A stretch of DNA of 26,883 nucleotides from Gemmatimonadales bacterium (GTDB lineage: Bacteria > Gemmatimonadota > Gemmatimonadetes > Gemmatimonadales > GWC2-71-9). The stretch lies in contig JBBRGR010000001.1 in assembly GCA_038223815.1 (NCBI GenBank), positions 1-26,883 on the forward strand. Direction: 5' to 3'. The notes beneath the pieces are model-generated. The model did no database searches, was not told the DNA's origin, and saw only the letters and a program-made list of their open reading frames with translations. Made by a program: the position numbers and the translations under genes. Below, piece after piece: positions 13,703 to 18,416 of the stretch; the stretch's first letter is position 1, and every line of letters starts with the position of its first letter.

Positions 13703-13731
13703 TTGACTTTTCCACATTCGGGACCTAGAAT
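13703..13731 (+). promoter_or_regulatory. sigma70-type dnaA promoter with an embedded DnaA box
   Basis: TTGACT(13703-13708)-N17-TAGAAT(13726-13731). TTTTCCACA at 13708-13716 matches the DnaA-box consensus TTWTNCACA. Confidence 0.8.
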
Positions 13732-13780: not shown

Positions 13781-15172
13781 ATGCCGCTGTCCGCCAAAGA
13801 TCTCTGGAAGCGTGTCCTCGAGGGCGCCAAGCGCGCTATCCCCGAGCCCATGATCCAGACCTGGTTGTCCTCGAACGAGCCCCTCTCGTTCGAAGGCGGC
13901 ACGCTGACGGTGAGCACGCCCGACGACTTCGCCAAGCGCTGGAACGAAGAGAAGTACGCGGCGACGTTGACGCAGGTCGCGACCGAGGGTGCTGGGGAGC
14001 CGGTGACGGTGGTCTTTCAGGTCGCGGCCGAGCGGCAGAAGCGCCCGCAGATGGATCTCTTCGTCCCCCTGGCCCCAGCGGATCCTGCCGCCGTGCCGCC
14101 GACGCCGGTGAATCCGAGCGCCCAGCCGCTCAACGGCCGCTACACCTTCGGCCACTTCGTGATCGGCAAGTCGAACGAACTGGCCGCCGCCGCCGCCCAC
14201 GCGGTCGCCGAGGCCCCGGGGAGGCAGTACAATCCGTTCTTCATCTACGGCCCGACCGGCCTCGGCAAGACCCACCTCATGCAGGCGATCGCGCACGAGG
14301 TGCTCTCCCGCGCCCCGAACACGCGGGTGCTCTACATCGGCGCCGAGCAGTTCATCAACGAGGTGATCGAAGGGATCCACGGTCGCACGATGCCCGACCT
14401 CCGTCGGCGCTATCGGAGCGACGTCGATCTCTTCATCGTCGACGACGTCCACTTCCTCGAAGGGAAGGAAGCGACCCAGGAAGAGTTCTTCCACACCTTC
14501 AATGCGCTCTACGAGGCCGGCAAGCAGATCGTGCTGACCTCGGATCGGTTGCCGAAGGAGATCCCCGGGCTCGAGGCGCGGCTGGTGTCGCGCTTCGAGT
14601 GGGGCATGGTCGCCGACGTCAAGCAGCCAGACCTCGAGCACCGGATCGCCATCCTGCGGAAGAAGCAGGAGCAGGATCACCTCGAGACGACGATCCCCGA
14701 CGACGTGCTCCGCTTCATTGCCGAGAATGTCCGGTCGAATGTGCGCGAGCTCGAAGGCTGCATCATCAAGCTGCTGCTGTACGCGTCGCTGCGGCATCGG
14801 GAGATCTCGATCGACCTCGCCCGCGAGGCGCTGTCGGACAAGATGCGCCCGGGCGACGAAGCCGAGGCCCGGCAGAAGGCGTTGCCGTCGATCGAGAAGG
14901 TCCAGGAGGTCGTCGCGCGCCGCTGGGGGGTCACCCCGGAGGGGCTCCGCTCCAAGGCGCGGATCAAGACGCTGACCGTCCCGCGGCAGATCGCCATGTT
15001 CCTCGCCCGCGAGCTCCTGCAGATGCAGTTGGTCGAAATCGGCCAGGCCTTCGGCGGCCGCGACCACTCGACCGTGATCCATTCGGTGGACAAGGTGCAG
15101 ACCCAGCTCCAGCGCGACCGCGACTTCAGAACCCGCGTGGACTCTGCCCGGCAGGAGTTGTTGACAGTCTGA
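13781..15172 (+). CDS. dnaA: Chromosomal replication initiator DnaA (463 aa)
   Basis: YTFGHFVIGKSN, YNPFFIYGPTGLGKTHL, Walker B FIVDDVHFL, TQEEFFHTFN, RSNVRELEG, PRQIAMFL, GGRDHSTVIHS. Confidence 0.99.
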   Translation: MPLSAKDLWKRVLEGAKRAIPEPMIQTWLSSNEPLSFEGGTLTVSTPDDFAKRWNEEKYAATLTQVATEGAGEPVTVVFQVAAERQKRPQMDLFVPLAPADPAAVPPTPVNPSAQPLNGRYTFGHFVIGKSNELAAAAAHAVAEAPGRQYNPFFIYGPTGLGKTHLMQAIAHEVLSRAPNTRVLYIGAEQFINEVIEGIHGRTMPDLRRRYRSDVDLFIVDDVHFLEGKEATQEEFFHTFNALYEAGKQIVLTSDRLPKEIPGLEARLVSRFEWGMVADVKQPDLEHRIAILRKKQEQDHLETTIPDDVLRFIAENVRSNVRELEGCIIKLLLYASLRHREISIDLAREALSDKMRPGDEAEARQKALPSIEKVQEVVARRWGVTPEGLRSKARIKTLTVPRQIAMFLARELLQMQLVEIGQAFGGRDHSTVIHSVDKVQTQLQRDRDFRTRVDSARQELLTV

Positions 15173-15401: not shown

Positions 15402-16514
15402 ATGAAGTTCACCATCACGCGGGAACAGCTCTCCGAAGGCGTCAGCGCCGTGAGCGCGGCCGTGCCCTCCAAGACGACCCTCCCCGTGCTCGCCAACATC
15501 CTGCTCGAGGCCACCAAGGACGGGCTGCGACTTTCGGGTACCGACCTCGACATCGCAGTGAGCACCACGGTGCCGGCCTCGGTGGACCAGGAGGGCGCGA
15601 TCACGCTTCCTGCACGCAAGCTGCAGGAATTGGTGCGCGAACTGCCGAGTGCGGGCATCCGCTTCACGACGCAGGGCGAGCAGCGCGTCACCATCGAATG
15701 CGGCCGCTCGAAGTTCAAGCTGCTGGGTTTGCCGCGCGAGGAGTTCCCGGCCTTCCCGCAGGTGACCTTCGACGGGGCGTCGCGCACGACCGCGCGTGAC
15801 CTGCAGAAGCTCGTGGCGCACGTGGCCTTCGCCGCCTCCACCGAAGAGAGCCGACCGATCCTCAACGGCGTGCTGTGGCAGCTGACCGCCGATCGGATGC
15901 GCATGGTGGCGACCAACGGGCACCGCCTCGCCAAGATGGAAGTGCCCCTGCAGGGCGCTGCCGCGCAGCCCGCCGAGTTGATCGTGCCGCCCAAGGCGCT
16001 GGAGCAGTTCCGCAAGCTCTTCGGGGCCGACGACGAGATCGAGATCGGTCGCTCCGAGAACCACCTCGGCTTCCGTTCCGCCACGACCCAGGTGTACACC
16101 CGCCTCATCGAAGGGCCGTACCCGAATTACGAGCAGGTCATCCCCCGCGAAAACGACAAGTTCGCCACCGTGGAGAAGAGCACCCTCATCTCGGCGTTGC
16201 GCCGGATGAGCATCGTCGCCTCCGACCAGACCCACCGGATCCGGATGTCCTTCGGCGATGGCTCGTGCCGCCTCTCGGTGACCACGCCAGACCTCGGCGA
16301 GGCACAGGAGGAGATCACCGTCTCCTACGAAGGCGAACCGCTGGATATCGGCTTCAACGCGAATTACCTCCTCGAAGTGCTGAAGTACATGCCGACCGAG
16401 GAAGTGCGCCTCACCTTCAAGGCACCCGAACGCGCTGCGACGGTGGAACCGGTCGGCTGGGATGACCCTGCCGCCTATTTGACCCTGGTGATGCCGCTCC
16501 GCCTGATCGACTGA
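15402..16514 (+). CDS. dnaN: DNA polymerase III beta sliding clamp (370 aa)
   Basis: MKFTITRE, LPVLANILL, GTDLDI, RPILNGV, VATNGHRLA, RLIEGPYPNYEQVIP, IGFNANYL, LVMPLR. Confidence 0.99.
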   Translation: MKFTITREQLSEGVSAVSAAVPSKTTLPVLANILLEATKDGLRLSGTDLDIAVSTTVPASVDQEGAITLPARKLQELVRELPSAGIRFTTQGEQRVTIECGRSKFKLLGLPREEFPAFPQVTFDGASRTTARDLQKLVAHVAFAASTEESRPILNGVLWQLTADRMRMVATNGHRLAKMEVPLQGAAAQPAELIVPPKALEQFRKLFGADDEIEIGRSENHLGFRSATTQVYTRLIEGPYPNYEQVIPRENDKFATVEKSTLISALRRMSIVASDQTHRIRMSFGDGSCRLSVTTPDLGEAQEEITVSYEGEPLDIGFNANYLLEVLKYMPTEEVRLTFKAPERAATVEPVGWDDPAAYLTLVMPLRLID

Positions 16515-16649: not shown

Positions 16650-18416
16650 ATGAAACGTTTCCTTGCCGTTGCCCTCCTCGTGGCTGCCGCTGCCCCGCTC
16701 CCCGGTCAGGTCAAGCCCGCCACCAGGGCGGCTACGAAGGCCGCCGCGCCCAAGACGGTCTGGCCCGACGAAGGCGCCCGCACGTGGGCTCCGCGCCCGA
16801 CCAAGCCCGTGATCGACGCCAACGACCTGCGGACCCGTCTCTACCAGATCGCCGATGACTCGATGATGGGTCGCGAGGCCGGGACGCTCGGCAGCTTCAA
16901 GACGACCGAGTACATCGCCACGGAGCTGGTGCGCCTCGGCCTCACGCCGGCTGGTGAGAACGGCACCTTCTTCCAGGATGTGCCCTTCGGCCCGACGGGC
17001 TACGACGTTGCGGTGAGCACCCTGACCCTCGATGGCCGGAAGCTCACCCCCACCACCGACTGGGTGCCAATGAACCCGTCGGCGGTCAACGGGATCAGCA
17101 ACCGGATGAACGCCACCGTCCCGGCAACCGTCTTCGGCGGCCGCTGGGGGGACAGCACACGCCTCGACCCGGCCGTCGTGACCGGGAAGGTCGTCGTCTT
17201 CCTGCCGGCCGCCGCACCGGCCGCTCCGGCCGCTGGCGGCGGTCGCGGGGGAGCGGCAACCGTCCGTGACCAGCGTGCTCAGCAGGCCGGTGCGGTGGGC
17301 GTCCTGGTGGCCGGGCTTGATGCCATGTCCGAAGCCCAGCGCGGTGCCGCCTTCACCCAACGGATCGCCCTGAAGCCGGCGAACCCGGCCGACATCGCCG
17401 GAGTACCCGGTGCCACGATCACTCGCGCCGCGGCCAACAGTCTCTTCGGCGCCCCACTGGAACAGCTGGCGATCGGAGCGGCGGGCAAGGGGATGAGCGG
17501 GCTGTGGGTCAGCCAGTGGACCATGTCGAAGACGCCAGGCCGCAACGTGATCGCCATGCTGCCCGGATCGGATCCGCAGCTCAAGGGGGAGTATGTCCTG
17601 ATCGGCGCGCACACCGACCACGTCGGCATGGTCAACGGCACCCCGCCCGAGCATGACTCACTCCGCGCCTTCAATCGCATCATGCGGCCGCAGGGCGCCA
17701 ACGATCGTCCTGGCCCGCCGACCGCGGAGCAGTGGTCGCAAATCAACGCGCTGGTCGCCACGGCCCGCGCGATCCGTCCGGCCCGCCCCGACACCGTCAA
17801 CAACGGTGCCGACGACGACGGCTCGGGCACCGTGGTACTGCTGGAGATCGCCGAGCGCTTCGCCACCGAGCCGGCGCCGGCTCGGTCGATGATCTTCAAC
17901 TTCCACATCGGCGAGGAGAAGGGATTGGTCGGCTCGAAGTGGTTCGTCGATCATCCGACGATCCCCCTCGACAAGATCGTCGCCGCCCACAACATGGACA
18001 TGCTCGGCAAGGGGCGTGTGACCGATGTCCGCTACGGCGGCCCGGCCTCCGTGCAGATGCTCGGCTCCCGCCGCCTCTCCGACGACTTTGGTCACGTGAT
18101 CGACTCGCTCAACGCCGTGCGCAGCGAGCCGATGGTGATCGACTACTCCTGGGACCGCACCAACGCCCTCAACCGCTTCTGCCGCTCCGACCAGGTGAGC
18201 TACTTCAACAAGCAGATCCCGGTCACCTACTTCTCGCTCGGCTACGCGGTGGACTACCACATGCCGACCGACGAGCCGCAGTACATCGACTACGAACACG
18301 GCGCCCGCGTCGGCCGCTTCGTCCACGAGATCGCGCGCACCGTCGCCAACCGGCCGGAACGGTTGCAGGTGTTGCCGTTGGACAAGCGCGACTTGAGCGC
18401 GAGTTGCACGAGATAG
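16650..18416 (+). CDS. Secreted M28-family metallopeptidase with PA-like region (588 aa)
   Basis: Signal peptide MKRFLAVALLVAAAAP; GAHTDHVG, NGADDDGSGTVVLLEIA, GEEKGLVGS, NMDM, RSDQ, YHMPTDE. Confidence 0.93.
   Translation: MKRFLAVALLVAAAAPLPGQVKPATRAATKAAAPKTVWPDEGARTWAPRPTKPVIDANDLRTRLYQIADDSMMGREAGTLGSFKTTEYIATELVRLGLTPAGENGTFFQDVPFGPTGYDVAVSTLTLDGRKLTPTTDWVPMNPSAVNGISNRMNATVPATVFGGRWGDSTRLDPAVVTGKVVVFLPAAAPAAPAAGGGRGGAATVRDQRAQQAGAVGVLVAGLDAMSEAQRGAAFTQRIALKPANPADIAGVPGATITRAAANSLFGAPLEQLAIGAAGKGMSGLWVSQWTMSKTPGRNVIAMLPGSDPQLKGEYVLIGAHTDHVGMVNGTPPEHDSLRAFNRIMRPQGANDRPGPPTAEQWSQINALVATARAIRPARPDTVNNGADDDGSGTVVLLEIAERFATEPAPARSMIFNFHIGEEKGLVGSKWFVDHPTIPLDKIVAAHNMDMLGKGRVTDVRYGGPASVQMLGSRRLSDDFGHVIDSLNAVRSEPMVIDYSWDRTNALNRFCRSDQVSYFNKQIPVTYFSLGYAVDYHMPTDEPQYIDYEHGARVGRFVHEIARTVANRPERLQVLPLDKRDLSASCTR

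Follow-up and report, generated by a model that had tools for sequence, protein, structure and literature searches.

Can a chromosomal replication initiator make direct contact with the sliding clamp? The question is raised by a stretch of DNA of 26,883 nucleotides (hereafter the window: positions 1 to 26,883 of the forward strand of contig JBBRGR010000001.1, assembly GCA_038223815.1) from a bacterium of the order Gemmatimonadales, in which the gene for the initiator DnaA encodes the pentapeptide QMDLF shortly past the first domain of the protein. In the two systems that have been studied well, it is by way of an adaptor, either Hda or YabA, that the clamp signals to DnaA that replication is under way; to our knowledge, most of what has been learned on the control of re-initiation comes from Proteobacteria and Firmicutes. 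A sequence-only reading of the window had remarked on the likeness of QMDLF to the peptides that bind the beta clamp, DnaN, and had suggested that the initiator and the clamp might be coupled directly. The analysis reported here leads us to regard QMDLF as probably a genuine motif for direct binding to the clamp: it is kept by selection throughout the order, and is predicted to dock in the peptide-binding cleft of the DnaN protein encoded downstream.

A clamp-type pentapeptide in the DnaA linker

The open reading frame (ORF) in question, of 463 codons, has Pfam matches to DnaA_N (residues 7-68), Bac_DnaA (117-278) and Bac_DnaA_C (371-439), and a profile search found it to be the only match to PF00308 in its own assembly, a metagenome-assembled genome (G000) of 2.65 Mb in 597 contigs that is 75.6% complete. 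It has domains I, III (AAA+) and IV (helix-turn-helix) and lies in an origin-type gene context, with rnpA and yidD upstream on the minus strand and dnaN downstream, and we identify it as DnaA. The codons cag atg gat ctc ttc (14048-14062) specify Q90, M91, D92, L93 and F94, as the sequence-only reading had placed them, and are followed by VPLAPADPAAVPPTPV, the Pro/Ala-rich stretch that it had described. Its comparison with QL[S/D]LF also holds at all key positions, the peptide having Q at position 1, an aliphatic residue at 2, a hydrophobic one at 4 and F or L at 5.

Matches of this kind are scarce in the genome. The strict pattern Q[LM][SD][LF]F occurs four times in the 2,427,007 residues of the six-frame ORFs of at least 150 residues from the same assembly, a rate of about 1.6e-6 per residue, or about 7e-4 expected matches per protein of 463 residues. 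Besides DnaA, the pattern is matched by a ThrRS-like ORF and a ThiF/MoeB-like ORF, at sites that we take to be conserved parts of these enzymes. The fourth match, on contig C91, was discarded as belonging to a spurious antisense ORF.

The motif type is itself in use in this lineage, as indicated by the internal site of DnaE at which it would be expected. DnaE carries QASLF in a genome of the same genus and QVTLF in one of the same family, near residue 918 of an open frame of about 1066 residues, a site presumably equivalent to that of the clamp motif inside E. coli Pol III alpha. These motifs were read from relatives because the DnaE of the window's own genome is present only as a fragment, on a 1.6-kb contig.

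Conservation of the motif within the order

The survey took in 200 high-quality representatives of species from the phylum, and the DnaA N-termini of 105 of them were read; families f1, f2 and f3 of this survey make up the order to which the window belongs. Every one of the 56 sampled species of the order has Q[MI]D[LFM]F, set in the conserved form R-x-Q-[MI]-D-[LFM]-F-V, the variants being QMDFF, QMDMF, QIDLF and QIDFF. Among the closest protein clusters (n = 120, with 52-91% identity over the N-terminal 135 residues and one not placeable by script), the motif is present in 119/119 that were readable, as QMDLF in 94, QMDFF in 23, and QMALF and QIDMF in one each, in the context (K/Q)RPQMD[LF]FV.

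Column by column, the contrast with the surroundings is sharp. When the sequences of 55 species are anchored on Q, the R at -2, the Q, the D and the final F are found in 100%, the M in 96% and the V at +5 in 95%, with only L, F or M at the fourth position of the motif; columns +8 to +16 hold 10-16 residue types each and have an entropy of 2.6-3.4 bits. In the same species every codon of the motif varies synonymously (CAA/CAG, GAC/GAT, TTT/TTC, six Arg codons, several Leu codons), which means that selection acts at the level of the peptide. The alternative of a conserved nucleotide element within the gene was considered and ruled out on this ground. The motif is thus under strict purifying selection at the protein level. 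The spacer that separates it from LNxRYxF, the anchor sequence of domain III, is hypervariable, with a length of 16-24 residues in all 55 species; this constancy counts for little in our view, since the species are relatives of one another and the comparison is confined to the order.

An apparent exception, genome G187, retains QMDFF, and a frameshift follows in the spacer. Its dnaA (L181, G187:C1:303992-306037) encodes domain I and QMDFF in one frame and LNERYTF with the remainder of the protein in another, a break that is either genuine or an artifact of assembly.

A worry voiced when the peptide was first pointed out was that QMDLF might be a functionless coincidence, and five-residue matches do indeed occur by chance. 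Against this stand the small number expected per protein in this genome, with four matches in 2.43 million ORF residues, and the invariance of the motif across the order amid hypervariable flanks and synonymously varied codons. Conservation effectively refutes a chance match, the probability of which we judge to be negligible.

Structure of the linker and predicted docking on DnaN

In an AlphaFold2 model of DnaA built from a 40-sequence alignment (A2), domain I is a confident block, with a predicted local distance difference test (pLDDT) score of 83-90, made of helices 5-16, 22-29 and 49-71 and strands 34-38, 41-46 and 76-81. Residues 84-121 have no secondary structure, and pLDDT falls below 50 for residues 88-111, in keeping with the disorder anticipated from the sequence. 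The motif stands at the head of this predicted disordered linker and begins about eight residues past the final strand of domain I. Low pLDDT and lack of secondary structure next to a confidently modelled domain I suggest that the motif is not packed; packing against domain I, which would have spoken against a binding peptide, does not appear in the model, and QMDLF is predicted to be exposed.

A complex between DnaN (from alignment A1) and residues 72-125 of DnaA (from alignment A2) was predicted in three runs, along with three controls. The interaction prediction score from aligned errors (ipSAE) was 0.63, 0.67 and 0.66, and 0.00 for the best of the three controls; in a calibration, 58 of 80 solved complexes attained that mark, as did 2 of 110 mismatched pairs. 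At least 66% of the contacts were common to the runs, and pLDDT was 47-48 for the DnaA partner. Confident contacts join DnaA residues 88-94 and 97 to DnaN residues 171, 173-174, 176, 241, 243, 246, 277, 279, 319, 343, 345, 362 and 364-367. DnaN is 31% identical to E. coli beta over its full length in a pairwise alignment, and most of the contacts have counterparts there: residues 171, 173-174 and 176 align with T172, G174, H175 and L177, residues 241 and 246 with P242 and V247, and residues 362 and 364-367 with V360, M362, P363, M364 and R365, while N320, V344 and S346 are also among the aligned positions. Together these E. coli residues form what we take to be the canonical peptide-binding cleft of published beta-peptide structures. 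The model thus places DnaA 88-94 where a clamp-binding peptide would be expected to lie, in the cleft that domains II and III of DnaN form between them, and a prediction of the complex, which had been proposed as a check on the initial suggestion, comes out in its favor.

Distribution outside the order

Persistence of the motif in an otherwise variable linker, the pattern by which its significance was to be judged, holds throughout the order but does not extend to families f4-f9, which belong to other orders of the class, or to f11; the motif was not found in the DnaA N-termini surveyed from these families. In f6, the DnaA proteins (L083, L129-L136) have an invariant RLDFPEI at the same position of the linker, perhaps a decayed form of the Q motif or else a motif of another kind. 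A single f7 genome reads ELDLFEAP, and f12 has EIDFSDE-like remnants.

Two groups outside the order have comparable peptides in the same place. In family f10, from another class of Gemmatimonadota, all nine DnaA proteins (L157-L165) read Q[MI][DNE]LW, as in EQMDLWQ and DQIDLWSF; we know of no characterized clamp motif that ends in W. The other group emerged from a background set of 50% representatives, a search that soon led out of the phylum; of the 128 diverse DnaA sequences in it that include an N-terminal region, four match the strict pattern. Three of these are Gemmatimonadales-like, and the fourth, P0156 (43% identical), reads EQLSFF at residue 91. In its lineage (P0156 and P0272-P0292), 22/22 relatives have a Q-initiated motif at the same site after domain I, mostly QL[SDNQP][IFM]F and otherwise QMSLL, QPSLL, QLSIL, QLDFL or the hexapeptide-type QISLPF. 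This is an unrelated, low-GC lineage, known from metagenome-assembled genome GCA_964521915.1 and from metagenome contigs; dnaA (L236:3001-4341) and dnaN (L236:4571-5731) are followed there by an SMC_N-family gene, probably recF, and by dciA.

To judge from the sequences, the motif recurs independently in f10 and in the low-GC lineage. The appearance of pentapeptide and hexapeptide clamp forms at one and the same linker site in an unrelated lineage is, in our view, the strongest indirect argument that the partner would be the clamp.

Adaptors and a tandem paralogue of the DnaA ATPase

The absence of hda and yabA had been put forward as a check on a direct link between DnaA and the clamp. YabA (PF06156) has no match in the window's own genome, 75.6% complete, in a search whose control recovered the YabA proteins of B. 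subtilis and L. lactis, and canonical Hda was not found in the order by the PF00308 and paralogue surveys. To that extent the expectation was borne out; it has to be qualified in that nearly all complete relatives possess a tandem paralogue of the DnaA ATPase. Nearly all complete f1 genomes, including all eight of the same genus, have three PF00308 matches, the two extra ones belonging to a single protein of about 640-690 residues with tandem DnaA-type ATPase domains and without domains I, II and IV (for example L092:307-2322 (+) of G034:C13; also L205-L217, L220, L222 and L223). This protein was found in 15/15 f1, 4/5 f2 and f4 genomes sampled, while the sampled genomes of f6 and f9, and most of those of f7, gave no match. 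(Genomes G178, G053, G093, G153, G203 and G204 enter the PF00308 and paralogue tallies only and stand outside every motif count; locus L228 of G093 was left out of the analysis.) The paralogue was likewise not found in the assembly of the window, though present in all eight same-genus genomes, probably because the assembly is incomplete. A conserved middle region (DEF..FL...WR...W..EG) joins the two AAA+ domains of the paralogue, and its gene has a small P-loop protein of about 200 residues encoded upstream and a DUF4388-TPR protein downstream.

One could envision the tandem paralogue as the Hda of this lineage. Its ORFs, however, begin directly at LNPxYxF. There is no clamp motif at the N-terminus and no clamp-like motif conserved in 16 aligned orthologues; the sequence QAELLRL lies inside the AAA+ fold. 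Lacking the N-terminal motif, the protein is not a canonical Hda, and it was ruled out in that role. The motif in DnaA is likewise neither a replacement for nor a companion of an Hda-like gene, inasmuch as genera g42, g48 and g13 combine it with a single PF00308 match and family f4 has the paralogue without the motif.

A tandem paralogue from another lineage, P0141 (697 residues), starts with MSAGNQLQLF, an Hda-style N-terminal clamp motif, and continues immediately with LNPNFTF; the tandem paralogues P0132, P0173 and P0204 are without such a motif. In two much longer proteins, P0131 (1876 residues) and P0137 (1990 residues), a pair of DnaA-like Walker A sites is found far apart in the chain, and their N-termini appear to resemble the N-terminal domain of type II secretion/type IV pilus ATPases.

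Organization of the locus

The features discussed above are collected in Table 1. The gene after dnaN is neither recF nor gyrB but one for a 588-residue M28-family peptidase (16650-18416, +), whose N-terminus looks signal-peptide-like by eye. A sequence matching the DnaA box at 8/9 positions, TTTTCCACA, occurs at 13708-13716 (+), 65 nucleotides upstream of the dnaA start. A scan of the window for DnaA boxes gave two one-mismatch boxes where 1.07 are expected, with no enrichment and no box cluster, and for this reason we do not call an origin.

Table 1. Coordinates of dnaA, dnaN and the elements relevant to their predicted contact (positions in the window).
Feature	Position	Strand	Basis
dnaA, chromosomal replication initiator, 463 residues	13781..15172	+	ORF, three Pfam matches, gene context
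DnaA domain I, folded, residues 5-81	13793..14023	+	AlphaFold2 model; Pfam DnaA_N 7-68
Conserved block R88-P-Q-M-D-L-F-V95	14042..14065	+	Column conservation in 55 species representatives of the order; same columns invariant in alignment A2
QMDLF, candidate beta-clamp-binding motif, residues 90-94	14048..14062	+	Consensus match, conservation, modelled in DnaN cleft
Pro/Ala-rich hypervariable spacer between motif and AAA+ domain, residues 96-110	14066..14110	+	Column entropy, pLDDT
DnaA AAA+ ATPase core, Bac_DnaA residues 117-278	14129..14614	+	Pfam
dnaN, beta sliding clamp, 370 residues, proposed partner	15402..16514	+	Pfam DNA_pol3_beta, DNA_pol3_beta_2, DNA_pol3_beta_3
DnaN residues 171-176 (T-N-G-H-R-L), cleft wall	15912..15929	+	Modelled interface residues 171, 173-174, 176
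DnaN residues 241-246, cleft wall	16122..16139	+	Modelled interface residues 241, 243, 246
DnaN residues 362-367 (L-V-M-P-L-R), C-terminal strand of cleft	16485..16502	+	Modelled interface residues 362, 364-367

Discussion

The properties of this DnaA invite comparison with several known systems. As in Hda of E. coli and HdaA of Caulobacter, a DnaA-type AAA+ module has a Q-initiated peptide of the clamp-binding type on its N-terminal side and, presumably, the clamp would report ongoing replication to the initiator. Hda, however, stands alone as a protein that lacks domains I and IV, whereas the motif described here is part of a full-length DnaA with both DnaA_N and Bac_DnaA_C; moreover, the hexapeptide of E. 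coli Hda, QLSLPL, is N-terminal (residues 6-11) and QMDLF is internal. YabA of Bacillus subtilis tethers DnaA to the clamp and replisome without Hda, which is the function that we think most likely in the present case, but it does so as a separate zinc-binding coiled-coil adaptor that bridges DnaA and DnaN, whereas here the link would be direct. The clamp clients proper (DnaE with its internal motif, Pol IV, Pol II, UmuC, MutS and MutL) share with this DnaA the QL[SD]LF consensus, its position in a disordered or terminal segment and the same DnaN cleft; they differ in that they act on DNA at the clamp, whereas DnaA is an origin-binding initiator without a known need for processivity. In TrfA of plasmid RK2, an origin-binding initiator itself carries a pentapeptide clamp-binding motif, QLSLF. 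TrfA is a winged-helix, iteron-binding Rep protein and a plasmid initiator, not an AAA+ DnaA; no Rep family is among the Pfam matches of our DnaA, and the two have in common only the logic of an initiator with a clamp motif. TrfA loses beta binding without L137/F138, and in vitro the assembly of a replisome at oriV depends on the TrfA-clamp complex (PMC4980987).

We propose that QMDLF, like the motifs of DnaE, Pol IV, Hda and MutS, would insert into the hydrophobic cleft that lies between DnaN domains II and III and tether DnaA directly to the clamp. Clamps left on the DNA behind the forks by the replisome would capture DnaA and thereby couple control of the initiator to ongoing replication, a step that we infer. 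The captured protein might be sequestered at forks, as with YabA in Bacillus; its nearby domain I might be blocked; or its ATP hydrolysis might be promoted, as by the Hda-clamp complex in E. coli. The explanation as a whole, namely a clamp-binding motif that tethers DnaA to the clamp and couples initiator control to replication, seems to us reasonably probable. Provided that binding occurs, a negative, replication-coupled role is the likelier outcome, and we favor it because the two chromosomal links known between DnaA and the clamp both act negatively, with neither of their adaptors evident in this lineage; a positive role, by analogy with TrfA, would be a lesser possibility. The most specific version, in which Gemmatimonadales DnaA is under direct, adaptor-free control by DNA-loaded DnaN that captures it through QMDLF and inactivates or sequesters it, is tentative and perhaps doubtful.

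Two other accounts of a functional motif deserve consideration. One shares the binding step with the explanation just given and differs in its consequence alone: DnaA bound at the origin would bring DnaN, alone or together with the clamp loader, to oriC and speed up replisome assembly. A long, flexible spacer of 16-24 residues would suit a recruiting tether equally well, and TrfA, the one initiator in which a motif for clamp binding is documented, acts positively. On the other hand, Hda and YabA, the two known chromosomal connections, both act negatively, and in the DnaA-dependent oriC systems studied so far the clamp is loaded at primers and is not known to need the initiator for this; we therefore hold recruitment to be unlikely. 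In the other account, R-P-Q-M-D-[LF]-F-V would be a short linear motif for a partner other than the clamp, with a coincidental likeness to QL[SD]LF. Conservation alone does not name the partner, and candidates include the replicative helicase or its loader, a domain I regulator of the DiaA/HobA/SirA type, the tandem paralogue, a protease adaptor, or a contact with domain I or III of DnaA itself. The classical clamp consensus does not include the invariant flanking residues R88 and V95, the final W of the f10 variant is not known to us from characterized clamp motifs, complex models can pass by recall of solved structures, and the tandem paralogue is conserved in most relatives. Yet all four positions by which the clamp consensus is defined are invariant, R88 is among the modelled contacts with the clamp, and the presence of pentapeptide and hexapeptide (QISLPF) forms at the same site in the low-GC lineage is difficult to explain in any other way. 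Furthermore, the motif occurs without the paralogue in some genomes, such as those of genera g42 and g48, and the AlphaFold2 model shows no confident intramolecular packing. A non-clamp partner thus appears quite improbable.

Several observations nonetheless weigh against clamp tethering as the explanation. Clamp-peptide complexes are abundant among solved structures, so that success in complex prediction may partly reflect recall of that likeness and not a property of this particular pair; the DnaA partner has a pLDDT below 50 in the complex, and DnaA-DnaN binding is a prediction of the model alone. Families f4-f9 replicate without the motif, which shows that it is not essential to DnaA function. 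Nor does the motif track the presence or the absence of the tandem paralogue, and the genomes therefore give no hint of the pathway in which it might act; calls of absence in the window's own assembly are limited by its incompleteness. Lastly, T18-F19 of E. coli Hda aligns with T122-F123 of DnaA, and the distance from Q to TF is 12 residues in Hda and 32 here (Q90 to T122). Hda-like geometry is not reproduced, and the motif does not simply make DnaA into a protein with a built-in Hda. The coupling suggested by the sequence-only reading accordingly fares well as regards conservation, an unpacked linker and docking in the cleft; the absence of Hda needs the qualification given above, and the binding stays at the level of a prediction.

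Clamp-binding motifs, Hda, YabA and TrfA are all familiar; what appears to be new is the location of such a candidate motif within a chromosomal DnaA. We found no report of one in the full-text literature, a search whose coverage leaves out most subscription journals, and the reading that started this work was likewise not aware of any. The order includes cultured Gemmatimonas species. If the proposal is correct, a clamp motif built into DnaA would represent a simpler, adaptor-free version of the logic embodied by Hda and YabA, and would stand beside them as a third solution to the problem of replication-coupled initiator control, while adding the chromosomal initiator to the known clients of the clamp. 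The recurrence of such motifs at the same linker position elsewhere suggests a general principle as opposed to the curiosity of one clade. Given their presence in a second class of the phylum and in a low-GC lineage, direct coupling between initiator and clamp may be ancient or may have evolved repeatedly, and it may be commoner than model organisms suggest.

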